64,000 bases of DNA from a virus. This document shows positions 43,627-58,143 of the stretch, piece after piece (positions within the stretch are counted from its first letter, which is position 1; each line of letters starts with the position of its first letter). The notes under the pieces were generated by a model. The model worked only from the letters and a program-made list of their open reading frames with translations, made no database searches and was not told the origin of the DNA. The stretch spans positions 64,001-128,000 of the IMG/VR virus record IMGVR_UViG_3300031251_000003. The stretch is one strand, 5' to 3'. Made by a program: the position numbers and the translations under genes.

Positions 43627-43919
43627 GTCTTTGAATGACTTTATCTTAGACCGGAAGCGAATATGTACGGAGTCAAGCGTGACATATGGCTAACTCTAGT
43701 TGTCTCTAGAACTTGACAGAAGGAGACAACGTGGTCTTATACGGCGGTCGAGTCCCATTAAGTTGGGATTCCCGCCACCAATTTGAAACACCCGCTCCGG
43801 GGTAGGAGGCGTGAACTAGCGTAACTAGTTCGGAGGCTACTTGATCCTAATCGTAGCAGGGTTCGCCCTAAACAGCGTAATCAAGCGTGGTTAGCTCTAA
43901 CGGGTTAATCACGCTCCAT

Positions 43920-44002
43920 ACCCCGCTGGTGAAATTAGGTAAACACGCAGGTCTTAGAAATCTGTGCCGCGAGGCTTACGAGTTCGATTCTCGTGTGGGG
44001 TA
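43920..44002 (+). tRNA. tRNA-Leu(UAG)
   Basis: Cloverleaf with variable arm. Confidence 0.88.
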
Positions 44003-44219
44003 CTTGGGGTGAGGTAGTCGTTGTCCGGGATAGCTTCCTAAGGAATAGGCTAGCGCTGGCTGATTTGCGTAAATCTGCACACCCTAAAACTTGAGTAAGG
44101 GCGAAGTCTGCTACATGCAGCAGATAGGTTAGCTTGTGCCGTGGTGTAAGGAGCCTGGGGTCATAGAATCCCGACAGACCCTCTGTATTTCTTCCATTAC
44201 CGTGATGGTAATGTGTAGG

Positions 44220-44456
44220 ATGTCTGGATACGAAAGAGAACAACAAAAAGAAACTCAGTACACCGATACGGCGGATTTCCCCCGTTACTCTGACTATGCT
44301 GGTTTTAGTTCTTATTCTTATCCTACCTATCCTGCTCAGAGTCGAACGTACGTCGTTCAAACTAGTAATTGGGATCAGACACAAGACTACACCGCTTCTG
44401 GTCTAGCTGCTACTCAAGCAACCTGGACAAGAACTGAACTGCATAACACTAATTAG
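44220..44456 (+). CDS. hypothetical (possibly virion) protein
   Basis: MSGYEREQ...; Y/T/S-rich. Confidence 0.55.
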   Translation: MSGYEREQQKETQYTDTADFPRYSDYAGFSSYSYPTYPAQSRTYVVQTSNWDQTQDYTASGLAATQATWTRTELHNTN

Positions 44457-44464
44457 AGGTTAAC

Positions 44465-45076
44465 ATGGCTAAGAGAAAGTTTGACGATAAGGCTACGTGG
44501 CGCACCGATACTTGGGGTATCGATATGACCCAGCCTGCTCGTGCCGAGCGCGTATTTGACCCTAACGATACCGTTACCGATGATCCCACTAAGGGTGGAA
44601 TCGCTGGTTCTGGTGATAATACCAAGGTCACTCATGCTGCTGGTGTTATGTACACAGGATTGAATGATAATCCGGCTGTCGCTGTAGCTCGTGCATACGA
44701 CGATTTCCAGAATCTTACTCCTGCTGTAACTGCGACTTTGACAACATCTTTAACGGGCGCGAACAATGACGTGACTTTCAGTGCTCTTCGTTCCGGTGCA
44801 TCAGGAAACGCAATATCTGTAACCTATGTCGATCCAGGTGGTGCTACTGCTACTCTTGGGGTAACAGTCTCCGGTACCGATATCACGGTCAACCTAGGTC
44901 GAGCAGCATCAGCTATTAACACCACAGGTACGTTGCTCATCGCAGCAGTACAGGCAGTTCCCGCAGCAGCGGCATTGGTCAATGTGGCCAACGCAGCAGG
45001 TAATGATGGAACTGGTCTAGTAACTGCTTTGACTAAGACGAACCTTGCTGGTGGTTTGGAAGCTTTCTACTCTTAA
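44465..45076 (+). CDS. virion structural protein, paralog of 31..612
   Basis: RBS GAGGT; shared Ala/Thr/Gly-rich domain. Confidence 0.65.
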   Translation: MAKRKFDDKATWRTDTWGIDMTQPARAERVFDPNDTVTDDPTKGGIAGSGDNTKVTHAAGVMYTGLNDNPAVAVARAYDDFQNLTPAVTATLTTSLTGANNDVTFSALRSGASGNAISVTYVDPGGATATLGVTVSGTDITVNLGRAASAINTTGTLLIAAVQAVPAAAALVNVANAAGNDGTGLVTALTKTNLAGGLEAFYS

Positions 45077-45079
45077 CGC

Positions 45080-45108
45080 TTGACAGCCAGTACCCTGTGT
45101 GATATAAT
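45080..45108 (+). promoter_or_regulatory. sigma70-type promoter with palindrome over -10
   Basis: TTGACA-17-TATAAT; CCTGTGT-GATATAAT-ACACAGG. Confidence 0.85.
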
Positions 45109-45142
45109 ACACAGGTAAGGGAAAACGACAGAAAGGATTCCC

Positions 45143-45499
45143 ATGGCACTTTCAGCAGCAGAGCGCGAGACAGTGATTGTCATCTCGGATGCAGACGACT
45201 TCTGGACTATCCATACTTGTCAGCGCCGGATGGTGACCCAGCTTCTCAAGAACCCGGTCGCCAAGATCCTTGAGAACACCCTCTTCGAGGGTACTCGGTT
45301 CCTCGTTGCTGAGGTTCCTGCGAATGGTATCACTGTTCGCAAGTCGAACGGTCGCAAGGCCAAGTCTTCGCAGCCGCGTAAGGCGACTCTCCGGACAATG
45401 CCGGGTGAGAAGTGCGGCGGCACCAAGTCTGATGGAAGTAAGTGCGGTGCAATCGCAGTGAGTGGTACGGGGTTCTGCCGCCATCATCAGAGCAAGTGA
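45143..45499 (+). CDS. hypothetical protein with C-terminal CCCH Zn finger
   Basis: RBS GAAAGGAT; C...DGSKC...FCRHH. Confidence 0.75.
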   Translation: MALSAAERETVIVISDADDFWTIHTCQRRMVTQLLKNPVAKILENTLFEGTRFLVAEVPANGITVRKSNGRKAKSSQPRKATLRTMPGEKCGGTKSDGSKCGAIAVSGTGFCRHHQSK

Positions 45500-45644
45500 A
45501 GTGCAGTTGAAGTGAAGTAGTAGTTGAAATTGTAGTTAGTCTTCTTGGGAGGGTCAGGAGTCGGTTGTGTCCTTCGATCTAAGGAGGTATACAAATTACG
45601 ACTAAGGTAGTAAGAGGGACTCCTGACCCTCACAGGGGACTTTA

Positions 45645-45719
45645 CGGGTGTGTAGCTAAGCGGTTCAAGGCAGGGGACTCTTAATCCCAAGATCACAGGT
45701 TCGAATCCTGTCACACTCA
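45645..45719 (+). tRNA. tRNA-Lys(CUU)
   Basis: Cloverleaf. Confidence 0.9.
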
Positions 45720-45726
45720 TCTAAGC

Positions 45727-46027
45727 ACGGTGGATAGGAACTATCCGCAGGAGCGATACGAGGATACAAGACCGATCAGGGGCCACTGTGAGGTCTTCTC
45801 TACCTCTGGCAGGGTCGCGGTGGGTACTAACTCATCTAGTGTATATGCCGGTCTTAGCCCGAATGCAGATGTTTCAGCGTATACATCTAGTAGGGCTTTA
45901 CTTTGTAACACCCCTCTCAAGTACACGGAGGAAGGATACGAACGGTACGCAGCCAAAAGGGTCTGCCATATTGAGAACCGAGTAACAATGCTCAATACTT
46001 ACCTGATTTAATCAGGTATTTTACCGT
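45727..46027 (+). ncRNA. large orphan structured RNA
   Basis: Ends pair; several internal complementary blocks. Confidence 0.55.
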
Positions 46028-46061
46028 CATCCGTCTGGTCGTACCGGGATGACGTTAGAAA

Positions 46062-46147
46062 CTCCAAGTGGTGGAATTAGGTATACACGTCAGGTTGAGA
46101 GCCTGATGGCCATCGCGGTCTTGCAGGTTCAAATCCTGTCTTGGAGA
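46062..46147 (+). tRNA. tRNA-Leu(GAG)
   Basis: Cloverleaf with variable arm. Confidence 0.9.
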
Positions 46148-46169
46148 TCTCTTACAGGAGGTAAGAAAT

Positions 46170-46298
46170 ATGAATCCAATCTTTTGGCTTCTCTTGATTC
46201 TCTTGATTGTCATCCTTTTGGGTGGAGCAGTATTCAGCCATCTAATCTGGGTATTGATCATTGTAGTTGTCATCCTTTTCTTCCTCTTCGGAAGGTAA
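46170..46298 (+). CDS. 42-aa hydrophobic peptide
   Basis: RBS AGGAGGT; MNPIFWLLLILLIV... Confidence 0.65.
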   Translation: MNPIFWLLLILLIVILLGGAVFSHLIWVLIIVVVILFFLFGR

Positions 46299-46346
46299 GT
46301 CATGGCCGTTCCCTATTCTTATGCGGTCTGGGGTAACGGCCACCAT

Positions 46347-46419
46347 GGTTCTCTAGCTCCAACGGTAGAGCGGCTGTTTGAAGCACAGCGCGTTGGCGGT
46401 TCGAATCCGTCGGGAACCA
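46347..46419 (+). tRNA. tRNA-Phe(GAA)
   Basis: Cloverleaf. Confidence 0.9.
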
Positions 46420-46591
46420 CTGTAGTCGAAGATCCAAGAGCCTCGCTCCACTAAAGTTGGCTGTCTTATAATACAGCACCGGAAGAGAAACTCAAGGGGA
46501 GACGAAATTACGGAGACAAATAGATTAAGCTCCGTAAGATTTATGTTCTATCCTGATGCGTGAATGTTGATCACTAACAAAAGGAGAGAAC

Positions 46592-46792
46592 ATGAAGACA
46601 GCAGTAGGTACTGAAGATCTAACAGGCGCAGTAGTGGTTGATGTTGGCTACAATGATGTGACTCTTGAGAAGGATGGAGTCAGGTTTACTCTTGAACTTG
46701 AGTATGAAGCCGACTACAACAGTTTCTGCGAAGGTAGTTGCTCTTGTTGTGGTAGTTCTGGCTCATCGTACTTCCGGGCCTATAAGGAATAA
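46592..46792 (+). CDS. small Cys-rich hypothetical protein
   Basis: RBS AAGGAG. Confidence 0.65.
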   Translation: MKTAVGTEDLTGAVVVDVGYNDVTLEKDGVRFTLELEYEADYNSFCEGSCSCCGSSGSSYFRAYKE

Positions 46793-46842
46793 AGAATCGT
46801 CTGTCACGCCGGATCCTGACGTAAAACTTAGTCCGGCCACAT

Positions 46843-46915
46843 GGCTCTATAGACTAGTTGGTTAGGTCGCTACCCTCTCAAGGTAGAAGTCGGAGTTCGA
46901 GTCTCCGTAGAGCTA
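46843..46915 (+). tRNA. tRNA-Glu(CUC)
   Basis: Cloverleaf. Confidence 0.9.
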
Positions 46916-46919
46916 CTAT

Positions 46920-46998
46920 GATCACGCAGCCACAGGGCAGGGCGCGGCGACCCGACACTTTCTCGGGGAACATGGAGGTTCGAATCCTCTCGGGATCA
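46920..46998 (+). ncRNA. aberrant tRNA-like RNA
   Basis: T-arm and acceptor present; extra nucleotides before anticodon arm; loop CACTTTC lacks U33. Confidence 0.5.
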
Positions 46999-47230
46999 CT
47001 GTGGGATAGAAAGGGCAACAAAGCGATATAACTTGACGCATCAGGGAGAGTTAGTCCCCTACTATCCCCCTATACTTTAAGAACGTGTGTGTGACGCTGT
47101 GACGCAGCAGAGGCACACTTTCGGGCGGGGGCGTCACCCCACGGTACCGGCGCGGTTTGGGACAACCGTTGTAAGACGACCGGAGGCGGCTTAGCGGCTG
47201 CTGAGAGGGTTCTCAAATGTTCTTATACTA

Positions 47231-47301
47231 TGGCGTATCGTTCAACGGCAGGACGGGTGGCTGTTAACCATCTAATTCAGGTTCGAATCCTGGTATGCCA
47301 G
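47231..47301 (+). tRNA. tRNA-Asn(GUU)
   Basis: Cloverleaf. Confidence 0.9.
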
Positions 47302-47372
47302 CTTTAAATTCGTAGGGCACTACTCGCTGGTCGGACTAGTTTGCTGGCGAGCAACCCTACGGCGCGTTTCAT

Positions 47373-47443
47373 TCCCCGGTCGTCTAACGGTAGGGCAGAT
47401 GGCTGTTAACCATCGTATGAGGGTTCGATTCCTTCCTGGGGAG
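47373..47443 (+). tRNA. tRNA-Asn(GUU)
   Basis: Cloverleaf. Confidence 0.9.
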
Positions 47444-47607
47444 CTTCGCAGTACATTGTTCGTCGTCCGGGAGCATCGCGAGGCATAACGGGTAGCTCAG
47501 GGTTAAATTCCCTGATAGGGCGGCTAGCCCTAGACTGAACGTATTGATCCTTACTTGTTAAAGCGGGTTTGGGGAATGTGGCAATGTATTGCGCCGGTTT
47601 TAATCGT

Positions 47608-47648
47608 CGCGGATTAGAGAAAAGGTCATCTCGTGAGTCTCATAAACT
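47608..47648 (+). pseudogene. orphan 5' half of tRNA-Met(CAU)
   Basis: Acceptor 5' strand, D arm and anticodon loop, then HNH gene. Confidence 0.7.
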
Positions 47649-47652
47649 TTTC

Positions 47653-48048
47653 ATGAGTTTACGAACACTAATAGTAGAGATGCCATACAAAGATCCCGAA
47701 AAACAGAAAGAAGCACAGGCTAGATTAAGTGCTGCTTATTATCAAAAGAATAAGAAAAAGATGAAAGTTCGTGCAAAGCAGTATACATACGAACATCGAG
47801 AACGTCTTAAGCAGTTTTTGATAGAGATAAAGTCTGCTCCATGTATGGACTGTGGAAATTCGTTTCCATCATGTGTAATGGACTTTGATCACCGTGAGGG
47901 TGAAGAGAAAAACGGTTGTGTGTCTGTAATGGTGAACCGCGCACTAAGCTTAGATAGAATTAAACAAGAAGTATCTAAGTGCGACCTAGTATGTGCGAAC
48001 TGTCATCGGATTCGAACCTCCACGCGGAAACAAGCCCTGGTGGGCTAG
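47653..48048 (+). CDS. HNH homing endonuclease (start at 47653 or 47680)
   Basis: CMDC..MDFDH..KCDLVCANCHRIR. Confidence 0.88.
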   Translation: MSLRTLIVEMPYKDPEKQKEAQARLSAAYYQKNKKKMKVRAKQYTYEHRERLKQFLIEIKSAPCMDCGNSFPSCVMDFDHREGEEKNGCVSVMVNRALSLDRIKQEVSKCDLVCANCHRIRTSTRKQALVG

Positions 48049-48096
48049 GGAGTCTCATAAACTCTCTCATGGTCAGTTCGATTCTGACTTCCGCTA
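48023..48096 (+). tRNA. tRNA-Met(CAU), overlapping HNH 3' end
   Basis: CGCGGAA/TTCCGCT acceptor with 1:72 mismatch; GGAGT-CTCATAA-ACTCT. Confidence 0.7.
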
Positions 48097-48250
48097 TTTC
48101 AAAATGCAACTAGGCCGACATAGTTGCGCCATATGGTGAAATGATCGGCATACAATTCTGTCTAACCTAGATAGGAGCGCAAATAATCATGAAGTAAGTT
48201 ATAACCTTTGCTCGTATTTGAAGGTTAAATGATTATTCCGCATATACGTG

Positions 48251-48357
48251 AGACGAATGCCGCAGAAGCCGGAAACGTCTAGCAGGGTCAAGTCCGCGAT
48301 AATCAGCTTGATGCATTCCCTGTGAATACAGCGAAAGCCGCCGCCGAGGTTGAGTCT
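48251..48357 (+). ncRNA. orphan RNA motif copy 3
   Basis: GAAACGTCT 48272, AGCGAAAGC 48330. Confidence 0.55.
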
Positions 48358-48494
48358 GGATTACAGTGTATGTGATTATATGATATGATTTTAAGTTTGA
48401 TTCATCTTGACTGTGGAGCCGAAAGCTGAGAAGCAGATCAAGAAACTAATGTAGATACATCGAGGGGTCGCGCATCTCTAACACGCGAATATTT

Positions 48495-48584
48495 GGATAG
48501 GTACTCAAGAGGCTTAAGAGGATGGTTTGCTAAACCATTAGAGGATGTCAAAGTCCTGCCAGAGTTCGAATCTCTGTCTATCCG
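48495..48584 (+). tRNA. tRNA-Ser(GCU)
   Basis: Cloverleaf, long variable arm. Confidence 0.9.
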
Positions 48585-48655
48585 TGTAAGACGATCCGAA
48601 GACGATGGGAACGTACGCGCATATCATGCGTGGTGACAGTCTATTCGAGGATCAG

Positions 48656-48728
48656 TGAATTGTAGCTCAACGGTTAGAGCGTTCCCTTCATATGGGAAAG
48701 GTAGTCGGTTCGACTCCGATCAATTCCA
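48656..48728 (+). tRNA. tRNA with CAU anticodon (Met or Ile2)
   Basis: TTCCC-TTCATAT-GGGAA. Confidence 0.8.
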
Positions 48729-48816
48729 TTAAAGAGGATGGTAGCCGATAGGTTGGCGTGGGTGTGCTGATTCGGTGAGATGGTTCGTCCTGCCTCATAA
48801 GACCACGCGAGAATTT

Positions 48817-48903
48817 GGATATATGGCTGAGTGGATTAAAGCGCTAGTCTTGAAAACTAGTATGTGTGAAAGCGCATCCGGGGTTCGAATCCCTGTGTAT
48901 CCG
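48817..48903 (+). tRNA. tRNA-Ser(UGA)
   Basis: Cloverleaf, long variable arm. Confidence 0.9.
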
Positions 48904-49083
48904 TAGGATGGTTTACGACGTGGTAGTGTACGTTTGGCGCTTAAGTGCGTTCTGGCCGAGAATCAAAGGCATCCATCCTTGGGGTTAGAGACTTAGGATT
49001 CTGAGGCGAGCAACCTGAAATGGTAAGGAACGAATAACCGTTGCTGCGGCCTGTCGTTCAAACTGGATCAAGTCTCTTCTTTT

Positions 49084-49170
49084 GGAAACGTGGCCGAGAG
49101 GATTAAGGCGCAGACCTGGAAAGTCTGTTGGTATTTACGTGCTACGCAGGTTCGAATCCTGTCGTTTCCG
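49084..49170 (+). tRNA. tRNA-Ser(GGA)
   Basis: Cloverleaf, long variable arm. Confidence 0.9.
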
Positions 49171-49175
49171 CTCAT

Positions 49176-49310
49176 GGGGTGAAAATGGAGAGTCGTCTAG
49201 TTCGATTCTAGACTTGTGGATGGTTCCACGGCGGTTCAATTCCGCGTTATAAACTTGTGGCAGCAAATAGGGTAGCCCCCGCTCAGAGGGTTCAATTCCC
49301 TTACACTCCA
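49176..49310 (+). ncRNA. tRNA-like RNA with three T-arms and G3:U70 acceptor
   Basis: Three TTCRATT hairpins; GGGGTG/CACTCC-A. Confidence 0.6.
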
Positions 49311-49356
49311 TTTATTTACAATTAGGATTACTAATTACTCTTGTATAATAGATAGA

Positions 49357-49785
49357 ATGATTAATTCTAGAGTTTTAAATGAGAAAATAAAGGCCCAAAA
49401 GGAGATTACGAATCAACGATTCGCTGATTCAGAAAAAGCTGTTGCAGCAGCTTTAGCTGCTCAAGAAAAGGCAACAGCGGCAGCATTTGCGGCTGCAAAG
49501 GAAGCTGTCATCAAGGCAGAAATTTCCCAACAGCGTGTCAATGAAAGTCAGAATGAATTCCGTGGCCAGCTTAAAGATCAAAATGCCGCTACGGAACGTA
49601 ATATGATGCCTCGTGCTGAAACAGAGTTATTGGTTAGAGAAATTCGAAGTAGTATTCAGGATCTTCAGAAGAGCCGAGATACCATCACAGGCAAGTCAAT
49701 GGGGATAGCTAACTTGACTAGCTCTGTCTATGCGTTTATCTTTGCTATTGCAGCTATTGCAGCTATCGCAGGCCACTTTCTCTAA
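49357..49785 (+). CDS. coiled-coil protein with C-terminal TM anchor
   Basis: EKAVAAALAAQEKA..NEFRGQL. Confidence 0.75.
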   Translation: MINSRVLNEKIKAQKEITNQRFADSEKAVAAALAAQEKATAAAFAAAKEAVIKAEISQQRVNESQNEFRGQLKDQNAATERNMMPRAETELLVREIRSSIQDLQKSRDTITGKSMGIANLTSSVYAFIFAIAAIAAIAGHFL

Positions 49786-49804
49786 TATGCTATAATGTGA
49801 TCCC

Positions 49805-49957
49805 ATGAGGATCATTGGTGAACATTTCACTAGGCAGGGTAAGCCTAAGGTTACTTATGCGACCTTCCAGGGCGCTCAGAAGAAAGCACTGAAGCTTCAT
49901 ATGCGGGCTTATCAGTGTGGGTTTTGTGGCAAGTATTATCTAACGCATAAAGTTTAG
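49805..49957 (+). CDS. small basic Zn-ribbon protein
   Basis: RAYQCGFCGKYYLTH. Confidence 0.6.
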   Translation: MRIIGEHFTRQGKPKVTYATFQGAQKKALKLHMRAYQCGFCGKYYLTHKV

Positions 49958-50039
49958 GAAGATATCCGAACGGTTAGGAAGCGCCCTCGAAAAGCGCCGG
50001 TGTTCATAGCACTTGGGAGTTCGAATCTCCTGTCTTCCG
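49957..50039 (+). tRNA. tRNA-Ser(CGA)
   Basis: Cloverleaf with variable arm. Confidence 0.8.
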
Positions 50040-50255
50040 CTTATCGATAATCCGGGGATAGACCTAGGATTGTGACTGGATTAGGATCGCAACCTGATTA
50101 CGGCAATCTCATGATGGTCAGCTAGGGCCAGCACCTAGAATCGATTTCTAAAAGAACGACTCACGAAAGACTAGTGTAGGAAGGTAAGGGACGCAGGGTT
50201 GGGATGACGATCTCGACGCGCCTATTTCTGTATCTTTCGTGGGAAGGTTTAACAC

Positions 50256-50327
50256 ACGCCTTAGCCAATGGATAGGCAGATCGGCTCCAACCCGATCCAA
50301 AGGTGGGTTCGATTCCTACAAGGCGTG
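50256..50327 (+). tRNA. tRNA-Trp(CCA)
   Basis: ATCGG-CTCCAAC-CCGAT. Confidence 0.82.
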
Positions 50328-50349
50328 CTCAGTCTTATAAGGAGGATGT

Positions 50350-51054: not shown

Positions 51055-51549
51055 GTGAACGAAGAACGACAACAAGCTTGGAACCATTACTTCCAGACCG
51101 GCGATAGAGAACCAATCATCAAAGCCTACTGGAAGTCGATCAGTTACATTGCTCATGCTCGTTATCCGGCCTACGAAGAAGATATGTTCCAGGTCGGGCT
51201 AATGGGTTTGCTCAAGGCTATCAGTCGTATCGATGTCAATCGAGTCAAGTCTATTGATGCTTGGGTATGGTTGAATGTTCGTGGAGAAATGTTTAACGTA
51301 AAGCTTGCTAAGCCAACTCTTCCGATTGTTATCGAGTCAGAGAGGTTTGCTATCGAGGAAGACAAAGATCCAAAGATCTACATGCAACAGGCATTCGAGG
51401 TTCTAAACGAGCGCGATAGGTATATTCTTGATAGTATTTACTATAAGAATAAGACACGTCAGGCTCTAGGCAAGGAGTTGGGCATTACCGGCATGAGAGT
51501 CGGCCAACTAGAACAAAGAGCATTAAAGCAGTTGAGAGAAGTATTGTAA
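51055..51549 (+). CDS. sigma70-family RNA polymerase sigma factor
   Basis: EDMFQVGLMGLLKAI (region 2); LGKELGITGMRVGQLEQRALKQLR (region 4). Confidence 0.88.
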   Translation: MNEERQQAWNHYFQTGDREPIIKAYWKSISYIAHARYPAYEEDMFQVGLMGLLKAISRIDVNRVKSIDAWVWLNVRGEMFNVKLAKPTLPIVIESERFAIEEDKDPKIYMQQAFEVLNERDRYILDSIYYKNKTRQALGKELGITGMRVGQLEQRALKQLREVL

Positions 51550-51622
51550 GCACAGGTACTCAAGCGGTTAAGAGGCCACTCTGATAAGGTGGTATGCGAA
51601 AGTTCGAATCTTTCTCTGTGCA
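51550..51622 (+). tRNA. tRNA-Ile(GAU)
   Basis: Cloverleaf. Confidence 0.88.
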
Positions 51623-51697
51623 TAGGATCGGATTATTGATCCAAAGTAAGGCGACCAATATCGTGGCGCTAGCGAAAATCACAAAAACGACTTTACA

Positions 51698-51797
51698 GAT
51701 ATTTTCATTTGTAGGTTCGAATCCTACTCCCCGCTCTTCACGCGGGGATGGCGAAATTGGCAAACGCGCTGGGCGATCAGCCCGGTTGTGAAATATC
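51698..51797 (+). ncRNA. circularly permuted tRNA-like RNA (YrlA-like topology)
   Basis: Order T arm, loop-closed acceptor, D arm, hairpin; ends pair. Confidence 0.75.
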
Positions 51798-51875
51798 AAT
51801 CAAGCGAAAGTTGTGTTAGCTAGAATAAGGCGCGTGATGCTAGCCTTTTATTTAAGGTTATATGCCTCTTATAGT

Positions 51876-52020
51876 CTAGTGAGGATCAAAGAAACGTCTC
51901 ATGGTATGGGCTTCCAAACCTATACTACGTGTAGCTCAAATGGGAGAGCCGCCGCCTGAAAAGCGGTGGGTTGGGGGTTCGAGTCCCTCCACGAAAGTAG
52001 CGAAAGCTTTGGGAGTTAGT
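51876..52020 (+). ncRNA. orphan RNA motif copy 4 containing a tRNA-Phe(GAA)-like domain
   Basis: TCAAA-GAAACGTCT...[tRNA-like 51925-52000]AGCGAAAGC-TTTGG. Confidence 0.65.
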
Positions 52021-52051
52021 CGAGTGAAAAGTGGTTAATTAGCCTTATTCC

Positions 52052-52374
52052 GGGAGCGTCCCGGTTTCGATGTGGAATTACGGTTCTGACTTCAATCCGT
52101 GGAAACATGATGGCCACGTAAAAAACATGTAACGTACTAAATGCAAACGCTAATATGAGCGTCCCGGACTTCATCCCTGATTGGGTAATGGATGAGTCCT
52201 TAGTTGCTGCTTAACTAGGAAACCTAATAAGCAGAGACTCTCAGGAAAGACTGAGTGGCGGAGGGGCGACTGCCCTCCATGCTTGACAAGTACGACCGTG
52301 ATGGGTATAATCTATGATTGTAAGCGTTAGTTCAACGATTACCGCAGACGCGAGTTCGACTCTCGCCGCTTCCA
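52052..52374 (+). ncRNA. ssrA: tmRNA
   Basis: G3:U acceptor, CGGTTTCGA, T arm; tag ANANMSVPDFIPDWVMDESLVAA at 52143-52214. Confidence 0.92.
52283..52311 (+). promoter_or_regulatory. consensus promoter inside tmRNA
   Basis: TTGACA-17-TATAAT. Confidence 0.65.
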
Positions 52375-52409
52375 TATGTACTATATTTCACTCCCTCCAA
52401 AGGAAGTTA

Positions 52410-52604
52410 ATGCACGATAGATCAGACTACCATATCCACAAGGATGAGCAAGGGAAACTACACAGGTGTTACCACAACTGCCGAAATATCTTACCCAACT
52501 GGCAGTTCTGGGTTGGTATGACGATGGGATTCCCTCTCGAACATCTGATTTGGCAACATCTTTGGCCCTTCTATTTAGTTAGTAATCTTTTGGGCCTTTC
52601 GTGA
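52410..52604 (+). CDS. hypothetical protein
   Basis: MHDRSDYHIH..; RBS AAGGA. Confidence 0.6.
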   Translation: MHDRSDYHIHKDEQGKLHRCYHNCRNILPNWQFWVGMTMGFPLEHLIWQHLWPFYLVSNLLGLS

Positions 52605-52672
52605 CCTTGGCCGAGTGGTTTAGGTATGGCTCTGCAAAAGCTATTACATCAGTTCGAATCTGATAGGTCACT
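52601..52672 (+). tRNA. tRNA-Cys(GCA)
   Basis: Cloverleaf, U73. Confidence 0.9.
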
Positions 52673-52784
52673 TGAAGTACAATGTTTCATACAGGATCTA
52701 CCTCTGGCTCATAGCTAGGCGGTTTAGATTTGAATGGTTGGAAAGGCTGGTTCGTAAACCTATAAACCAGAGATGGAGAAGGTA

Positions 52785-52985
52785 ATGGCACAGTTGCAGA
52801 AGACATTCATTGCACGATTCTACGATAGCTCACGACATCAATTTGCTACCAACAAGGTAGTCGCGGCAAACTTCGTGATGGCAGGAGAAGTTGCCCATGA
52901 GTGGGCAGAAGATCACTACCATGGACGTGCAACGAAGATCAAACTAGAATCCTCCAAAGGTGGAGAAGTTGTGTGTTCCGACTAA
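52785..52985 (+). CDS. hypothetical protein upstream of rpsL
   Basis: RBS GGAGAAGG. Confidence 0.6.
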   Translation: MAQLQKTFIARFYDSSRHQFATNKVVAANFVMAGEVAHEWAEDHYHGRATKIKLESSKGGEVVCSD

Positions 52986-52997
52986 AAGGAAGGGTGT

Positions 52998-53399
52998 ATG
53001 GCGACAATTAATCAGCTTGTAAGAAAGGGCCGAACGGCCAAGAGGAAGAAGGATAAGTCCCGTCATTTAAAGGGTAACCCTCAGGTTGCCGGTACTGTCT
53101 TGCGCGTCATGGTTCTCAACCCTTGTAAGCCGAATTCTGCCGAACGTCATTCGTGCAGGGTTAGACTCTCCAATGGCGGTGAGGTAACCTGTTACGTCCC
53201 TGGTCGTGGTATGAATATCCAGGAGCACAGCAGAGTCCTTGTTCGCGGCGGAATTGCTCCTGATCTCCGTGGAGTCAAGTACAAGGTTGTCCGTGGTAAT
53301 CGTGACTGTGCCGGGGTCAGTGATGAGATGGGTGGAAAGAAGAATTCCACACCAGTTCCTCGTAAGAATTCTCGTTCACTCTACGGAGTGAAGAAGTAG
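52998..53399 (+). CDS. rpsL: ribosomal protein uS12, divergent, phage-encoded
   Basis: [29 protein letters not shown]...DL.GV, RSLYGVK. Confidence 0.95.
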
Positions 53400-53511
53400 T
53401 GTTACATCACCTTATCGCTCGTTCCGATGCCTGTTGACGCAGGCTTAGGGAGCAAAACTGAAGCGTCAACTTCGTCTCAATATCGGCACAAGCCGAAGCG
53501 ATAAGGATCTT

Positions 53512-53595
53512 GCCCGCCTGGTGGAATGGTATACACGGTTGGCTTAAACCCAACTGCCTATAACGGGCTTGCGAGTTCGAATCTCGCGGTGGGTA
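53512..53595 (+). tRNA. tRNA-Leu(UAA)
   Basis: Cloverleaf with variable arm. Confidence 0.9.
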
Positions 53596-53617
53596 CTTGG
53601 TAAGGATGGTAGTTCAT

Positions 53618-53701
53618 ACCGGTGTGCTGGAATTAGGTATACAGGGGCGTCTCAAAAACGTCTGCTCAAAAGGCATGAGAGTTCGATTCTCTCCATCGGT
53701 A
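53618..53701 (+). tRNA. tRNA-Leu(CAA)
   Basis: Cloverleaf with variable arm. Confidence 0.88.
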
Positions 53702-54000
53702 CTGTCGGTATCACGCTGGCGCTCTAAGGAGTCGAGGCCGAATATCGGGATGCATCTCGTGAGAGAAGGGGATCTTGACGCCCGGAGTTTTGTCTTTATG
53801 TCTGAAACTCCTTTATGTTCAATAAACTAACTCATAACGGTACAGCACCTGAGTCAGTGGATGGAGTCGTCTAGTTCTCTAACAGTCAAATTGGCGTCCT
53901 TTCTAGATAAGGTAATCCTCTAAGATTGAGATTGACTAGCGGCGAACTTGAGGTACGGAAGTACCTTAGCCGACGACATTTATGATAAACTGTAGTATTA

Positions 54001-54073
54001 CCCTCCATAGCTTCAACGGTAAAGCACGGGCCTTTTAAGCCATGAGTTCTGGGTTCGAATCCTAGTGGGGGGA
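54001..54073 (+). tRNA. tRNA-Lys(UUU)
   Basis: Cloverleaf; imperfect anticodon stem. Confidence 0.78.
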
Positions 54074-54150
54074 CTTGAGATCTAGGGTGTGGGTTATACG
54101 TCCACGTTTCCTTATAGGCGATGCGCTCGGTAGTGTCGTGATCTCTATTA

Positions 54151-54223
54151 GCCCTCTTAATTCAGTGGACAGAATGTTAGCCTTCGAAGCTAAACGTCGG
54201 GAGTTCGAATCTCTCAGAGGGTA
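54151..54223 (+). tRNA. tRNA-Arg(UCG)
   Basis: TTAGC-CTTCGAA-GCTAA. Confidence 0.88.
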
Positions 54224-54237
54224 TCTAGAAAGAAGAC

Positions 54238-54266
54238 TTGACAACCAGACAACAATGAGGTATACT
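54238..54266 (+). promoter_or_regulatory. sigma70-type promoter
   Basis: TTGACA-17-TATACT. Confidence 0.8.
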
Positions 54267-54272
54267 TAAGCC

Positions 54273-54491
54273 GTGGCTAAGAAACACAAGCCGAAGGAAA
54301 AGACTGAAACGAAGTTTTCGAAGTATCTTCCCGGCGAGAGTACATGGACGGGACGACGCAATAAGACGAGGCAGGATCTAATCCCAATGGGTCAACGTGA
54401 TCGCGTTGAAACAGCACAGAAGATCAGATCCTTCTCGATGCAGCATAAGCCATCTTGCACTAAAGATTGGCTGAAGTTGCGAGTACATTGA
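54273..54491 (+). CDS. small basic protein (leaderless)
   Basis: GTG 6 nt after -10. Confidence 0.55.
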   Translation: MAKKHKPKEKTETKFSKYLPGESTWTGRRNKTRQDLIPMGQRDRVETAQKIRSFSMQHKPSCTKDWLKLRVH

Positions 54492-54653
54492 TAACTTAGG
54501 TGGTGGTACCGGGAACCCCGATCCGGTGACGCGGAAGCGTATGGTGTAAGGGTTATGCACGCCACATGTACTAAGCCTTGGGATGCGATTCTCAAGGTAC
54601 CCTTTCTAGCAGGGGATGTGCCTGGGCACCGCTCCAGAGCCAGCTAGATGTAA

Positions 54654-54727
54654 CTGGATGTAGGAAAGCTTGGTAATCCGTCTGCTTTGGGAGCAGAAGA
54701 GCGTGAGTTCGAATCTCACCGTCCAGA
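54654..54727 (+). tRNA. tRNA-Pro(UGG)
   Basis: Cloverleaf. Confidence 0.9.
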
Positions 54728-54730
54728 CTG

Positions 54731-54939
54731 AAGAGTTAGGAGGTTGGCCTAAAGGCAGCCACCCTTTAAAGAGTAGACTTACGTGAGCCGACCACGCTGA
54801 GCGAAAGCCTATTTGAGAGTCATGATCGCGCAAAGGTGACAATGATCCCGCGCCCGGAATGGCAACATGACGAAGACCAAGGAAACGACTTGGAAGAATA
54901 AACGGGTTAGTCTTTTGGCGTAACAGCACACTATCTCTT
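54731..54939 (+). ncRNA. 23S rRNA GTPase-associated-centre (H43-H44) mimic with 143-nt insert
   Basis: TAGGAGGTTGGCCTAAAGGCAGCCACCCTTTAAAGAGT...GCGTAACAGCACACTA closed by AAGAG/CTCTT. Confidence 0.85.
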
Positions 54940-54949
54940 TTAGAATTGA

Positions 54950-55024
54950 CTGGATATAGCTCAGCCTGGTTAGAGTACGCCCTTGGGGAGGGTGAGGCCG
55001 CAAGTTCGAATCTTGCTATCCAGA
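54950..55024 (+). tRNA. tRNA-Pro(GGG)
   Basis: Cloverleaf. Confidence 0.88.
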
Positions 55025-55027
55025 TAA

Positions 55028-55098
55028 CAGGATGTTGTATAGTGGTAATATACTTGCTTCGGGAGCATGAGTCAGAGGTTCGAGTCCTCTCATCCTGA
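55028..55098 (+). tRNA. tRNA-Pro(CGG)
   Basis: Cloverleaf. Confidence 0.85.
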
Positions 55099-55154
55099 TA
55101 TGTACTAGCTTTCTTATGGTGATCTCGCCCTACTAATGGGTAGGTGATAAATAA

Positions 55155-55322
55155 ATGAGACAACATATAGAAGGTGGATTACTTTCATTCTTAGGATTAT
55201 GTGCTGCTGCTCTCTTCTTTGGTCTTCTCGTATTTGGAGGATCCATTAGCGATTGGCCATTAGAGGTAGCAGGCTTCTTTGCTCTAGCTATTGCGTTCGT
55301 TCTGGAACGCTTAGGGTTGTAA
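55155..55322 (+). CDS. 55-aa membrane peptide
   Basis: MRQHIEGGLLSFLGLCAAALFF... Confidence 0.6.
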   Translation: MRQHIEGGLLSFLGLCAAALFFGLLVFGGSISDWPLEVAGFFALAIAFVLERLGL

Positions 55323-55557
55323 GACTCCGCTGGAATGCGGCGCATAGGGAGGTTCTTCGAGCCGTTGATCTATGTGATGGTGGAAACCGTGCCCGTTGAG
55401 CCGGGTAAAGGTACGACTAGCCATCGTATCGAAAGCGTAGGGCAGCGCGGTTGTAGCTGGTGGTGAGGGCGCAGCTATGGTATGGCTAAACGCCGAATCG
55501 TTCGAAGCGACAAGGCTTACGGGGTTGGTAATTCTCACGACTTGCCGATCCCGCCAA

Positions 55558-55629
55558 TGCGGTGTAGTCTAATGGTAGTGACTTCCGGCTCTGAACCGGA
55601 CAGTGTTGGTTCGAATCCAGCCTCCGCAG
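55558..55629 (+). tRNA. tRNA-Gln(CUG)
   Basis: Cloverleaf. Confidence 0.88.
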
Positions 55630-55919
55630 CTAACTCTAACGAGTAACAAGTGATTACAGCCGCTGATTGCCACGAGCGGTAAAGGATGGTCTTTTATGCC
55701 GGACGCTAGAATATGGCAGGTATAAAACTAAGTGTGTGGGTACCCGTAGCAATCACAGCCGCCGTTTTGTAATCCAGGATGTGGATTGTCGAGGTATGGT
55801 ATAGACACCACTTCTAGAAATCCACCATACATGCGCTACCTTGGAAAGGTGTAACGGTTCATAACCTGCCTTTCCTCCAATCCCCACTTAGGCTGAAATA
55901 TACCTAGGTGGGGAACCAA

Positions 55920-56000
55920 GCATATGTTGAGCAAAGGCTAGCTCCGCTGTCTGTAAAACAGCCGTCTCCGACTATGTAGGTTCGAATCCTACCATATGCA
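55920..56000 (+). tRNA. tRNA-Tyr(GUA)
   Basis: Cloverleaf with variable arm. Confidence 0.85.
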
Positions 56001-56004
56001 CTGA

Positions 56005-56076
56005 TGGGAAATCGGTTAATGGTTAAACCAAGAGCCTTTGAAGCTCTGACTTTGGGTTCGAGTCCCAATTTCCCTA
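56005..56076 (+). tRNA. tRNA-Gln(UUG)
   Basis: Cloverleaf. Confidence 0.85.
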
Positions 56077-56113
56077 TAGGTCAAGCTGGTGGGCCTGAAG
56101 CACTAGCATTTAC

Positions 56114-56187
56114 GGAAGCGTAGCTCAGTTGGTTAGAGCACCGGCCTGTCACGTCGGTAGTCGCGGGTTCGAGTCCCGTCGTTTCCG
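56114..56187 (+). tRNA. tRNA-Asp(GUC)
   Basis: Cloverleaf. Confidence 0.93.
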
Positions 56188-56418
56188 CTCTTTGGACGAT
56201 GACCTGTGGAAGGATTTATGCCAAACTTCCTAAAGGGTAAAAAGCTAGCGAGTAAGGCGAAGCTGGGGCACCACAAAATGCGTCAGTGGATGAAAGCTAG
56301 CGAATCAAGCTGCTGTAGGCATAACGGTAGTGTAATGAGCGAGTCTAACTCAAGTATTTTCGCTCCACCGTCCAAGGTTTTAAGTTGACCAATCATAATT
56401 TGTATGATATACTAAGTC

Positions 56419-56592
56419 ATGGTTACTAAAACGGACATAAAAACTCTTGAATTCGATGTAGATGGGAAGACAATCGAGCTTCAAGTTAAATGTGAGTTGG
56501 TTAGTAAAACTTGGAAACTTACGATTAATTGTAAGGATCCCGGTCGTGTTGAGTTTGAAACCATCATGAGTAAGATGGGTGTTATAAGATAA
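56419..56592 (+). CDS. hypothetical protein (leaderless)
   Basis: TTGACC-17-TATACT then ATG 5 nt later. Confidence 0.6.
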   Translation: MVTKTDIKTLEFDVDGKTIELQVKCELVSKTWKLTINCKDPGRVEFETIMSKMGVIR

Positions 56593-56596
56593 ATAA

Positions 56597-56672
56597 CGGG
56601 GTGTGGTGTAGTCCGGTCTAACACGCTTGCCTGTCACGCAAGAGAACGAGGGTTCAAATCCCTTCATCCTGA
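56597..56672 (+). tRNA. tRNA-Asp(GUC)
   Basis: Cloverleaf. Confidence 0.85.
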
Positions 56673-56742
56673 TTGAAGATCGTCTAAAGTAGGACGCCTG
56701 GTTTAACGGGAGATTCTAGAGGTTAACGTCTCTGGCTTCAAA
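56673..56742 (+). pseudogene. degenerate tRNA-like element
   Basis: Acceptor and D arm; non-consensus T loop. Confidence 0.4.
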
Positions 56743-56748
56743 ATACTT

Positions 56749-56823
56749 GCCTCGTTGGTCTAGCGGTCTAGGATACCGGGTTTTCACCCCGCGTGAACAA
56801 GGGTTCGAATCCCTTACGAGGTA
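56749..56823 (+). tRNA. tRNA-Glu(UUC)
   Basis: Cloverleaf. Confidence 0.85.
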
Positions 56824-56835
56824 CCTTAATAAAAA

Positions 56836-57167
56836 TTAGACACCAGGGTTTCAGAGCAAAGCGGTAGCTCCGAGCGCTCTTATGAGATCTTGGGTGTTGT
56901 GACGGAAAAGTGCCTATCTTGCTTCCGCAAAGCGGTGAGCTAGGTATTGAACGTATAAGCGGCGAAAGCTCTGGGCAACCGGAGCCGGTAGCAGCCGAAG
57001 TAAAGGAATCGAAACCAGCGGCTTAGCGGCTGAGGGACTAGGTTCTGGGCGGGGGTTGTACCTCGTACAGTGGTGGCTCGACAGGGCAGCGGAAGTAGAA
57101 GAGAAACCATATGACAAGGTAGCTTGCCTCTTCTTGCGGGATACCAAGACCCGCCAACACAGTCTAA
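56836..57167 (+). ncRNA. large orphan structured RNA
   Basis: Ends pair; long-range complements; GNRA hairpins. Confidence 0.55.
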
Positions 57168-57207
57168 ATCTTGGGGATGTTTGGGTAAAACTGAGCATCC
57201 CCACCAA

Positions 57208-57283
57208 CCTTCAGTAGCTCAACGGTAGAGCGGTACGCTGTATGGAAGCGTTCGGGTTGCGAGTTCAATTCTCGTCTGAGGGT
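57208..57283 (+). ncRNA. tRNA-like RNA with enlarged anticodon arm
   Basis: Canonical D, T and acceptor; 4 extra nt in anticodon arm. Confidence 0.65.
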
Positions 57284-57348
57284 CTTCTCGCTCGACACTC
57301 CCCTCCTAGGCCAATGATCTAGCCCGTGGGAAAGTGCGGCGAGTTCTA

Positions 57349-57421
57349 GCCAGCCTCGTATAACGGCATATTACACCGCACTTGTAATGCGGGTATTTCG
57401 GTTCAATTCCGAAGGTTGGCT
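57349..57421 (+). tRNA. tRNA-Thr(UGU)
   Basis: Cloverleaf. Confidence 0.88.
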
Positions 57422-57526
57422 CTCGTGTGTGGAAATGAAACTATGTGACGAGCGCGTTCCGGCATAGAAGTAGTGGCCTTTCTGGGTTCGAGTCCCAGCA
57501 CCGATTTATCAAAACAAGGAGGCACT

Positions 57527-57880
57527 TTGCTGAAATGGCTAAAGTTGCCGATACTAACTGTACTAATCCTAAGTAGTTTGGGAAATCTCAGGACAAACGG
57601 CGCTAAAGCTGTCTCAGTTCGTAGTCTCACTGTTTTAGAGACTGCCTATTGTCTTAGGGGAACTATGGCCAACGGCCACTATGTTCACCCTGGGGCAATA
57701 GCGGTTGATCCAAGAGTTATTCCTATGGGATCTCGTATCTTTGTCCCCGGCTATGGTTGGGGAACAGCAGAGGATACGGGTGGTGCAATTATCGGCTATC
57801 ATATCGATGTATGGATGAGCGATTGCTCACAAGCTATGAGATCTACCCGATGGAATGTACGGATCAAAATTTCACGTTGA
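57527..57880 (+). CDS. secreted 3D-domain (MltA-like) cell-wall protein
   Basis: TAY..AVDPRVIPMGS..AEDTGGAI..IDVW; RBS AAGGAGG. Confidence 0.88.
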   Translation: MLKWLKLPILTVLILSSLGNLRTNGAKAVSVRSLTVLETAYCLRGTMANGHYVHPGAIAVDPRVIPMGSRIFVPGYGWGTAEDTGGAIIGYHIDVWMSDCSQAMRSTRWNVRIKISR

Positions 57881-58017
57881 GTGGGAAGGTAACAAATATA
57901 GGTGGCATTTGGGGCCAAATGGCTATGCCGAAATTACTAGAAGAGTTAGCTAAATGTGATGTTGTTTGTGCTAACTGCCATCTTCGTAGACATCATTCCG
58001 CGTTGTTCGTAGACTAA
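57880..58017 (+). pseudogene. HNH endonuclease C-terminal remnant
   Basis: EELAKCDVVCANCHLRRH, no N-terminal half. Confidence 0.75.
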
Positions 58018-58076
58018 TTGGTTAAGTCCCTACCCTGTGAAGGTAGCCTATACGGGTTCGAATCCCGCCGAACAAC
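58002..58076 (+). tRNA. tRNA-His(GUG)
   Basis: G-1:C73; CTACC-CTGTGAA-GGTAG. Confidence 0.85.
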
Positions 58077-58143
58077 TCAAGGGGATCTCCTTGATATGCC
58101 GTGGTTCGTCGGTTACGAATTCTTGGAGCAAGATCCCCTCCAT

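Follow-up and report, generated by a model that had tools for sequence, protein, structure and literature searches.

CCA-ended hairpins in a phage tRNA array as possible mimics of the tRNA acceptor arm

The tRNA array of this phage, which extends from 42276 to 60854 of the 64,000-nt window (the whole stretch of DNA analysed here) and carries 46 tRNAs and one tmRNA, all on the + strand, harbours nine hairpins, also on the + strand, that are followed directly by one base and CCA. Their anatomy and spacing recur from unit to unit, they are enriched immediately before tRNAs, and in two related phages the structure is conserved without conservation of sequence. We put forward that these hairpins represent anticodon-less mimics of the tRNA acceptor arm (stem, unpaired base and CCA), laid out as separate units, spaced like CCA-encoding tRNA genes and cut out by RNase P, a proposal for and against which the case is nearly balanced. 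As a first-pass annotation of this DNA had claimed for the array, the tRNAs themselves encode no CCA after the discriminator (0/46), and it is absent from the tmRNA too; the trailers of these genes begin with T in about 41 of 47 cases. This phage has a gene for a complete CCA-adding enzyme that includes an HD domain. Near-consensus promoters are found in the array region at 42232, 42394, 45080, 54238 and 60387, and on the + strand one intrinsic terminator alone is convincing (61071-61101, a 13-bp stem plus T run), at the array end. Several promoters combined with a single terminator imply long transcripts, for which cutting is needed.

Eight of the hairpins had been listed in the first-pass annotation, and folding computation recovers all of them at the same coordinates and with the folds described; unit 5b (55843-55879) is an additional, ninth member. 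NCCA lies directly 3' of the stem in 9/9 units, with N being a purine (A or G) in six of them and U in the other three, and the stem starts with a G paired to C in all units except one. Six units (1, 2, 3, 5, 6 and 7) have stems of 11-13 bp, with MFE values of -17.9 to -22.6 kcal/mol and z of -3.5 to -6.2, and unit 5b nearly does, while a stem of about 12 bp (acceptor 7 plus T stem 5) is absent from hairpin 4 (7 bp) and unit 8. The exact 1-nt gap to the next tRNA or tRNA-like 5' end, also claimed previously, holds at six junctions: unit 2 (43885-43918; 11-13-bp hairpin, UCCA, U43919) before tRNA-Leu(UAG) at 43920; unit 3 (46304-46345; 7+5-bp hairpin, ACCA, U) before tRNA-Phe at 46347; unit 5 (55521-55556; 11-bp hairpin, GCCA, A) before tRNA-Gln(CUG) at 55558; unit 6 (55881-55918; perfect 12-bp hairpin, ACCA, A) before tRNA-Tyr at 55920; unit 7 (57173-57206; 12-bp hairpin, ACCA, A) before a tRNA with anticodon AUG at 57208; and unit 8 (58081-58142; 62 nt, 8-bp closing stem, UCCA, U) before a tRNA-like element (58144-58257) detected by the Rfam tRNA model only, at 38.9 bits. 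Unit 3 begins 5 nt past the stop codon of a 43-codon membrane-peptide ORF, and unit 8, whose interior is poorly defined (z -1.4), has its 5' end 2 nt past tRNA-His (58002-58078). Unit 5b is a 9-bp (+4) hairpin (GGAAAGG...CCUUUCC) with UCCA and one A before the first base of unit 6 (55881). Unit 1 (43743-43780), a 5+8-bp hairpin with a 2-nt bulge followed by ACCA (MFE -22.6, z -5.6), stands alone, with an A and a structured spacer of about 100 nt after it and no tRNA directly 3' in tRNA scans; hairpin 4 (48106-48131), with a 7-bp stem, the loop GGCCGACA and GCCA, is likewise stand-alone. The AACA- and CACA-ended hairpins noted earlier are indeed present, but they are weak, with 6-bp stems: one (43263-43285, + strand) is followed by U and tRNA-Val(UAC) at 43287, and the other (46808-46841, + strand; 6-bp (+4) stem) by U and tRNA-Glu(CUC) at 46843.

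CCA is the top trinucleotide at -4 to -2 of tRNA 5' ends (6/47 against 0.52 expected, P=1.3e-5), and at every other offset from tRNA starts it reaches counts of 0-3; one of the six sites, at tRNA-Met 48024, is without a hairpin and lies within an ORF. Dinucleotide shuffling, a check proposed together with the first-pass annotation, gave 5.4, 1.8 and 0.35 occurrences of stem plus NCCA at three stem thresholds, against 16, 10 and 5 observed, and CCA ranks first among the real stem ends at the two stricter thresholds. A looser test, in which any hairpin may precede NCCA, yields an enrichment of only about 2-fold. Given the tight-offset probability, as opposed to this loose result, the strong signal is the junction with the next tRNA, and hairpins 1 and 4, which stand alone, are on weaker ground. 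Furthermore, this type of junction was found in other viral contigs at 1 of 424 tRNAs without an adjacent upstream tRNA, against 13 of 133 in this lineage (Fisher P=6e-8).

Neither ARAGORN nor the Rfam tRNA model called a cloverleaf (D, anticodon and T arms) in any of the nine units. Their loops, of 4-10 nt, contain no UUCRANY consensus of a T-loop; the rest of the array is rich in real T arms (GGUUCGAAUCC). In addition, no unit matches the first pairs plus discriminator of a phage tRNA acceptor stem beyond 3-4 pairs, as would be expected of copies, and none carries the aminoacylation identity elements G3:U70 (Ala) or C73 (of the G-1:C73 pair, His). Unit 2 does present a Gly-like set (G1-C72, C2-G71, G3-C70 and U73), which could be due to chance. 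The hairpins were also considered as intrinsic terminators, and none of them appears in the terminator scan. In Rfam searches, unit 7 shows a weak match (15.7 bits) to the paired 5' and 3' ends of tmRNA.

The comparison set comprises this phage (G000) and two related uncultured phages, G001 and G002. Conservation in relatives had been suggested as a further check, and CCA is indeed found at -4 to -2 in 6/45 cases in G001 (P=6e-6) and 3/41 in G002 (P=0.01), being the top trinucleotide only at this offset in all three phages alike. The junctions of the relatives lie partly at the same tRNAs as in G000, with entirely different stem sequences; the slots before tRNA-Leu(UAG), tRNA-Phe and tRNA-Tyr are kept across phages despite unrelated stems. 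At tRNA-Leu(UAG), G001 has a hairpin, CCA and N, and G002 a similar hairpin, while at tRNA-Phe we find a different 6-bp hairpin with ACCA and U in G001 and a hairpin with UCC and C in G002. Where G000 has the degenerate AACA before tRNA-Val(UAC), G002 has a hairpin with ACCA and U. The slot of unit 5, before tRNA-Gln(CUG), is not conserved, G001 having a 9-bp hairpin with AUCUU. At orthologous sites CCA is sometimes replaced by ACA, CUA, CCC, or CC without a spacer, and thus is not strictly required everywhere; the closing stems of the relatives often span only 6-8 or 8+3 bp or surround larger structures, so that the 12-bp ruler is not conserved. Upstream of tRNA-Tyr a tandem is present in 3/3 phages, with two or three members and the layout stem-NCCA, N, stem-NCCA, N, tRNA. 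G001 has three, each with GCCA plus N, and in G002 three units fill the spacer (tRNA-Gln-GCCA, a, hairpin-ACCA, a, hairpin-GCCA, u, hairpin-ACC, c, tRNA-Tyr). Such tandems with 1-nt spacers fit individually excised units. Four units in front of tRNA-Tyr in G001/G002 have a conserved loop motif, GGCGAUCACUUCAAAUC, in common. Overall, units are gained and lost and their sequences fully turned over, and a role through shape only, or in cis, therefore fits better than a specific RNA partner.

How the units would be cleaved, which free RNAs would result and what these would do we infer as follows. Host RNase P would take a stem with single-stranded NCCA as a minimal substrate and cut at the first stem base; a second cut, at the 5' base of the unit or tRNA that follows, would leave NCCA plus one extra base, which a 3' exonuclease would trim. 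RNase Z, needed to process the real CCA-less tRNAs, would be blocked by the encoded CCA. The predicted products are hairpins released as free RNAs, about 35-60 nt long and with an NCCA end like that of a tRNA, which the phage CCA-adding enzyme could maintain by repair. They would interact with factors that recognise tRNA 3' ends by their shape and not their sequence, most likely as competitors or decoys. The first-pass annotation had read the hairpins as acceptor-end mimics with an NCCA exposed by RNase P, and the structural part of this reading gains from the 1-nt spacing, the two relatives and the match to RNase P hairpin substrates. A point against the mechanism is that a leader with a stable hairpin 5 nt before the tRNA is suboptimal for RNase P.

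Several known systems provide a context for this proposal. A hairpin of acceptor and T stem with a 3' RCCA is an efficient substrate of bacterial RNase P, the 12-bp stack acting as a ruler and RCCA pairing with the P15 loop (PMC11143913); synthetic minihelix or hairpin substrates go back to McClain, Guerrier-Takada and Altman 1987 (reviewed in PMC11143913). The phage units resemble these model hairpins in a stem of about 12 bp (in six of the nine), single-stranded 3' N-CCA, G+1 paired to C and mostly purine N, although the RNase P of the phage's host may be of a different type. Unlike the model hairpins they are natural, genome-encoded and repeated in an array, have no T-loop sequence and are in some cases bulged or shorter, and their cleavage is a prediction. 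In other phage arrays a 1-nt spacer is frequent between a CCA-encoding tRNA and the next one (tRNA-CCA-N-tRNA; 60 of about 107 CCA-conditioned matches), as in Bxz1, where Trp-CCA-a-Tyr has the same spacing; the hairpins thus occupy tRNA-like slots. As in tandem CCA-encoding tRNA genes, CCA is followed by one base and the next 5' end, whereas the upstream element here is a plain hairpin without D, anticodon and T arms, in a phage whose tRNAs are CCA-less. TRNA-shaped elements within longer transcripts are also known from plant mitochondrial t-elements, tRNA-like signals that define RNA ends via RNase P or RNase Z (PMC1920247), and from MALAT1, whose 3' end is generated by RNase P at mascRNA (PMC8457004). 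Those are cloverleaf-like and eukaryotic or organellar, in contrast to the phage units, which are minimal, tandem, tRNA-adjacent hairpins with encoded CCA. The C4 antisense RNA of phages P1 and P7 is a natural hairpin substrate of bacterial RNase P. So is pre-4.5S RNA, which is not a tRNA (PMC11143913). With these two the units share a long hairpin, a CCA-like 3' tail, an RNase P cut at the 5' base (predicted here) and, in part, a phage origin; pre-4.5S and C4 are, however, single sequence-specific functional RNAs, and the units form a variable family with at least nine members in one array.

In an alternative scenario, unlikely but with several observations on its side, RNase P cuts at the tRNA only and the hairpins are 3' end caps, so that the upstream mRNA or ncRNA keeps a hairpin-NCCA(+1) that resists exonucleases and can be repaired by the CCA enzyme, which the phage does encode. 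Unit 3 comes straight after a small ORF and units 5 and 7 after long structured spacers, and 3' ends made by RNase P are documented, with MALAT1 and the plant t-elements as parallels (PMC8457004, PMC1920247). In the Streptomyces phage Annadreamy, small GC hairpins (CCC-UUCG-GGG) without CCA stand 3-4 nt before several tRNAs, and a hairpin before a tRNA may thus be a general cap. Nevertheless, a tandem of two or three units spaced by exactly 1 nt goes beyond what a cap needs, and the mRNA that precedes unit 3 carries a hairpin of its own immediately before the unit. In G002, moreover, the three units fill the whole interval from tRNA-Gln to tRNA-Tyr, which leaves nothing upstream to tag and no other RNA that needs protection. 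The earlier suggestion of 3' tags on upstream ncRNAs is weakened accordingly, the tandem arrangement arguing for separate units.

Rather improbable, in our judgement, is that the hairpins serve as processing punctuation, that is, as RNase P entry or spacing signals for a long transcript of CCA-less tRNAs, and are functionless by-products once excised. Conservation of shape and NCCA alone, the decay of CCA at some sites and the status of RCCA as an RNase P determinant missing from the real tRNAs here would all agree with it. Yet RNase P requires no added signal for tRNA 5' cleavage, the tandem multiplication suggests product dosage, and the loop motif conserved in the four units before tRNA-Tyr suggests sequence-specific contacts. 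Finally, that the hairpins are what remains of CCA-encoding tRNA genes after internal deletion, or precede CCA by chance, is very hard to credit: in G002 two tRNAs, Gln-CUG and Pro-GGG, still encode CCA, the loose test gives a modest excess and the site at tRNA-Met is hairpin-less, but perfect 11-13-bp stems exceed an acceptor stem and hold no T-loop remnant, slots persist across phages through full compensatory turnover, the offset-specific enrichment reaches P ~1e-5 in each of two genomes, and the strong stem plus NCCA sites far outnumber those in shuffles.

Returning to acceptor-arm mimics cut out by RNase P, what they might do is more speculative. Toxic small alarmone synthetases (toxSAS) such as CapRel and FaRel2 pyrophosphorylate CCA. 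A pool of diverse CCA-ended mimics might act in counter-defence, soaking up by shape the host effectors that act on tRNA 3' ends (CapRel/FaRel2 toxSAS, MenT/AbiE-type nucleotidyltransferases and acceptor-end nucleases), with the phage CCA-adding/HD enzyme repairing mimics and tRNAs; in a variant, some would be charged and carry amino acids outside the ribosome. We regard this as a doubtful, if stimulating, idea. Minihelices have served in the laboratory since the 1980s to study RNase P, CCA-adding enzymes and synthetases, and here they appear as natural, selected genetic elements of phage tRNA arrays; a literature search found no published description of such CCA-ended hairpins in phage arrays. 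If cut out as proposed, they would constitute a new class of phage small RNAs made wholly by the tRNA-processing pathway, and stem, N, CCA, N, next unit would become an annotation rule for phage arrays. To date, anticodon nucleases and replacement tRNAs are the main known examples of phage-host conflict over tRNA, and decoys or competitors of the enzymes that read tRNA 3' ends would add a new, RNA-based layer to it. Since the elements are short and easily synthesised, every step of the model is open to direct testing.

Like unit 8 with its ill-defined interior, hairpin 4 is less tRNA-like, and it looks like the 5' stem of a conserved ncRNA of about 360 nt (48132-48493). At its position G002 has a hairpin without CCA, while in the G001 orthologue (L006:6010-6035) the loop and the GCCAU tail are identical and 4/7 stem pairs are changed on both sides. 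A candidate pseudoknot is also apparent, in which the loop GCCGA (48114-48118) can pair with UCGGC (48145-48149).

Folding bears out all eight of the CCA-ended hairpins that the first-pass annotation had placed at window positions 43743, 43885, 46304, 48106 (hairpin 4), 55521, 55881 (unit 6), 57173 and 58081, and adds a ninth on the plus strand, unit 5b (55843-55879), whose UCCA is separated by a single A from the 5' end of the hairpin at 55881. Six units, one more than first counted, have stems of 11-13 bp (z -3.5 to -6.2); hairpin 4 has the 7-bp stem originally described, and hairpin 8 (58081-58142) is closed by just 8 bp, its interior being ill defined. Eight of the nine units begin with a G that pairs with C, the unpaired base before CCA is a purine in six, and exactly one base separates a unit from the unit or tRNA that follows, between hairpins too. 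The six one-base junctions reported earlier likewise hold: five units end one base before tRNAs called by ARAGORN/Rfam, namely Leu (43920), Phe (46347), Gln (55558), Tyr (55920) and tRNA(AUG) (57208), and unit 8 precedes a tRNA-like element (58144-58257) reported by a permissive Rfam scan only. This 114-nt element reaches a tRNA score of 38.9 bits only when the alignment tolerates a long insertion, receives no ARAGORN call, and may be an intron- or insert-bearing tRNA. The tRNA with anticodon AUG (57208-57284) is called His yet lacks G-1; in two related phages the equivalent slot (L006:14236-14311; L014:19230-19305) holds a tRNA to which ARAGORN assigns the four-base anticodon UAAG.

Enrichment depends on how strictly the motif is defined. 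Any hairpin followed by N-CCA is only about two-fold enriched, and in the comparison with dinucleotide shuffles suggested by the first-pass annotation, stem plus NCCA occurs 16, 10 and 5 times at three stem thresholds against 5.4, 1.8 and 0.35 after shuffling. At the two stricter thresholds CCA is the top trinucleotide after real stem ends in the array. The strongest of the enrichment tests is positional: CCA occupies positions -4 to -2 (tRNA 5' end, +1) in 6/47 tRNA/tmRNA starts, against 0.52 expected (P=1.3e-5), and is the commonest trinucleotide there, with a count of 0-3 at each other offset. One of the six sites, before tRNA-Met (48024), lies inside an ORF and has no hairpin; thus five are hairpin junctions, to which that of unit 8 is added.

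A 203-aa protein encoded in the array led to two related uncultured phages (52% and 65% identity): G001 (IMGVR_UViG_3300004463_000262, locus L006) and G002 (an NCBI metagenome contig; loci L014, L134). Their tRNA arrays are syntenic with that of the window phage, G000. Conservation in related phages, another of the checks suggested, is borne out, with CCA at -4 to -2 in 6/45 starts of G001 (P=6e-6) and 3/41 of G002 (P=0.01), again specifically at this offset. Hairpin-NCCA-N precedes tRNA-Leu(UAG), tRNA-Phe and tRNA-Tyr in both G000 and G001, with unrelated stem sequences, and in G002 it precedes Ala, Val(UAC) and Thr(GGU). The AACA variant noted earlier fits here, the Val(UAC) slot of G000 being a degenerate AACA-U. 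Shortened forms occur in G002, as hairpin-UCC-C before Phe, hairpin-ACC-C before Tyr and hairpin-UCC directly before Asp; CCA varies at orthologous sites, and the stems of the relatives are shorter or branched.

On sequence comparison, the tRNA-Tyr spacer is the most telling locus. It reads [hp-UCCA]a[hp-ACCA]a[Tyr] in G000 (hp, hairpin), [hp-GCCA]c[hp-GCCA]a[hp-GCCA]a[Tyr] in G001 and [tRNA-Gln-GCCA]a[hp-ACCA]a[hp-GCCA]u[hp-ACC]c[Tyr] in G002, where three hairpins occupy the whole spacer. The stems differ entirely from phage to phage. Four units of G001 and G002 share the loop motif GGCGAUCACUUCAAAUC; a 15-mer scan for the GGCGATCACTTCAAA loop motif returned chance matches and G001 only.

Hairpin 4 stands apart. 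Its orthologue in G001 has an identical loop (GGCCGACA) and GCCAU tail, with four of seven stem pairs altered on both sides, and it heads an ncRNA of ~360 nt kept in all three phages. A conserved UCGGC lies 14 nt downstream and is predicted to be able to pair with the loop; in G002 the site carries a hairpin without CCA. For these reasons we treat it as part of the ncRNA: the stem and GCCA of the earlier description are present, its status as a secure minihelix is not. The conserved structured ncRNA (~300-360 nt; window 48132-48493; L006:6036-6330; 12950-13217 of L014 in G002) lies between a tRNA and tRNA-Ser(GCU) and has no Rfam match. Its motifs are GCUAG-AGGCCGGAAACGNCUAGC, AUCAAGUCCG...CAGCUUGAU and AGCGAAAGCCG...GCCGAGG, and the pieces CCGGAAACGUC ... 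AGCGAAAGCU recur at 42790-42860, at 43560-43620 and around tRNA-Phe (51890-52010).

The junction was also sought in other viral tRNA arrays. That of Streptomyces phage Annadreamy has none (0/24), and that of mycobacteriophage Bxz1 lacks the hairpin junction, its single CCA case being a genuine tRNA-Trp with encoded CCA, one base and tRNA-Tyr. Scanning viral contigs for CCA at -4 to -2 of tRNAs sharing one common D-arm sequence gave ~107 distinct matches, of which 60 are a tRNA with encoded CCA, one base and the next tRNA; phage tandems of CCA-encoding tRNAs are thus ordinarily punctuated by CCA-N, with the same one-base gap as the units here. A hairpin takes the place of the tRNA in seven matches (six distinct), for example in the unrelated viral contig L137 (IMGVR_UViG_3300012001_000271; 84-124, reverse strand), where a 13-bp stem, GCCA and C immediately precede a tRNA-Val that lacks CCA. 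Of the 633 other tRNAs in the surveyed loci, 424 have no adjacent upstream tRNA; 36 of these follow a stem of at least 7 bp ending at -6, with CCA after the stem in one only. With 13/133 hairpin-CCA junctions in the studied lineage versus 1/424 elsewhere (Fisher P=6e-8), the junction is uncommon overall, recurs in a few lineages and is concentrated in this one. Full-text literature searches turned up no account of hairpins with an encoded CCA end in the tRNA arrays of phages.

The array (42276-60854) holds 46 tRNAs and a tmRNA (ARAGORN/Rfam) on one strand. Five near-consensus sigma-70-type promoters lie outside genes (42232, 42394, 45080, 54238, 60387) and a single convincing terminator at 61071-61101, so the transcripts must be long and cut by endonucleases. 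As the first-pass annotation claimed, no tRNA in the window carries CCA after its discriminator; ~41/47 trailers start with T. Such trailers are expected where RNase Z and a CCA-adding enzyme mature the tRNAs, and CCA is an anti-determinant for RNase Z. The phage encodes its own class II CCA-adding enzyme (615 aa; G000:C1:38386-40233, L007:1018-2865), ~24-26 kb ahead of the window; its domains are PolyA_pol head, RNA-binding, tRNA_NucTran2_2 and HD. CCA-adding enzymes are common among phages; this one has an N-terminal extension (~160 aa) without Pfam match that other phage enzymes lack, their tblastn matches beginning at residue 171. RtcB is absent from G000 and present in G002.

Bacterial RNase P has as its classic minimal substrate a ~12-bp stem bearing an unpaired 3' RCCA; the enzyme cuts at the first stem base, measures a 12-bp stack and pairs RCCA with its P15 loop (PMC11143913). 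The G-C start, the mostly purine N and the one-base spacing are what would be expected of units processed like a CCA-encoding tRNA. The host RNase P, if of this bacterial type, would cut every unit, and the element after it, at its 5' base; the one leftover 3' base would be trimmed, and the encoded CCA would shield the units from RNase Z, true tRNAs taking the RNase Z and CCA-addition route. The product would, with fair probability, be free CCA-ended hairpin RNAs, tRNA-like processing elements and natural counterparts of minihelix substrates, and their most likely use would be as a shape-based competitor or decoy. The two proposals together are held tentatively, with slightly less than even confidence. 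The model is weakened by the form of the relatives' stems, the non-invariant CCA, the absence of a T-loop consensus from the unit loops and the lack of a recognisable synthetase identity set, save a possibly fortuitous Gly-like one in unit 2.

That the units instead provide a 3' cap for upstream RNAs seems rather unlikely: it would account for single units behind ORFs and spacers and has parallels in MALAT1/mascRNA and plant t-elements (PMC8457004, PMC1920247), but it leaves tandem units and the units-only spacer of G002 unexplained. Processing punctuation whose product has no function, which agrees with the free sequence turnover and partial decay of CCA, we consider improbable. Relics or chance are very improbable: the stems are long and perfect, turnover at the conserved slots is compensatory, and the statistics speak against them. 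Several narrower ideas were rejected: copies of acceptor stems (the units match neither the neighbouring tRNA nor any phage tRNA), terminators (no T runs follow the hairpins), pairing of the leader CCA with the tRNA trailer (trailers lack a consistent UGG) and, on strand polarity, which would argue against it, a leader CCA taking, in the active site of RNase P, the place of the 3' CCA that the tRNAs lack.

The window corresponds to bases 64001-128000 of an IMG/VR virus record of 158,106 bp that is rated complete, with window genes including tail and baseplate proteins, ligase and helicase. No close DNA relatives were found among cultured phages; the nearest by helicase are distantly related actinobacteriophages, namely cluster C mycobacteriophages and Gordonia phages (~25% identity). 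Neither the VWA protein nor a structural protein of 560 aa brought up further relatives in viral contigs, and a metagenome scan yielded one 1-kb contig. Small ORFs within the array encode this VWA protein, a sigma-factor-like protein, a 3D-domain protein and a ribosomal protein S12 homologue (52998-53399; Pfam Ribosom_S12_S23, E=2.7e-25), a search with which returned G001 only (65% identity). Just before the first array promoter, a conserved hairpin with covarying stems (42123-42158; L014:8007-8036) has the loop CUUUCCUCCUUUCCC (anti-Shine-Dalgarno-like CCUCC); (U/C)CCA-A and a T-rich stretch come after it, which makes it a probable terminator of the operon upstream. A tandem duplication of ~188 bp (~50650-51036), seen by eye, takes in most of tRNA-Ile(UAU) together with the 3' end of ORF 50350-50682; its first copy is a truncated tRNA. 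Between two tRNA-Pro genes, 54734-54791 (up to 54939) matches positions 1091-1152 of the bacterial LSU rRNA model in the permissive Rfam scan (21.3 bits, E=0.006).
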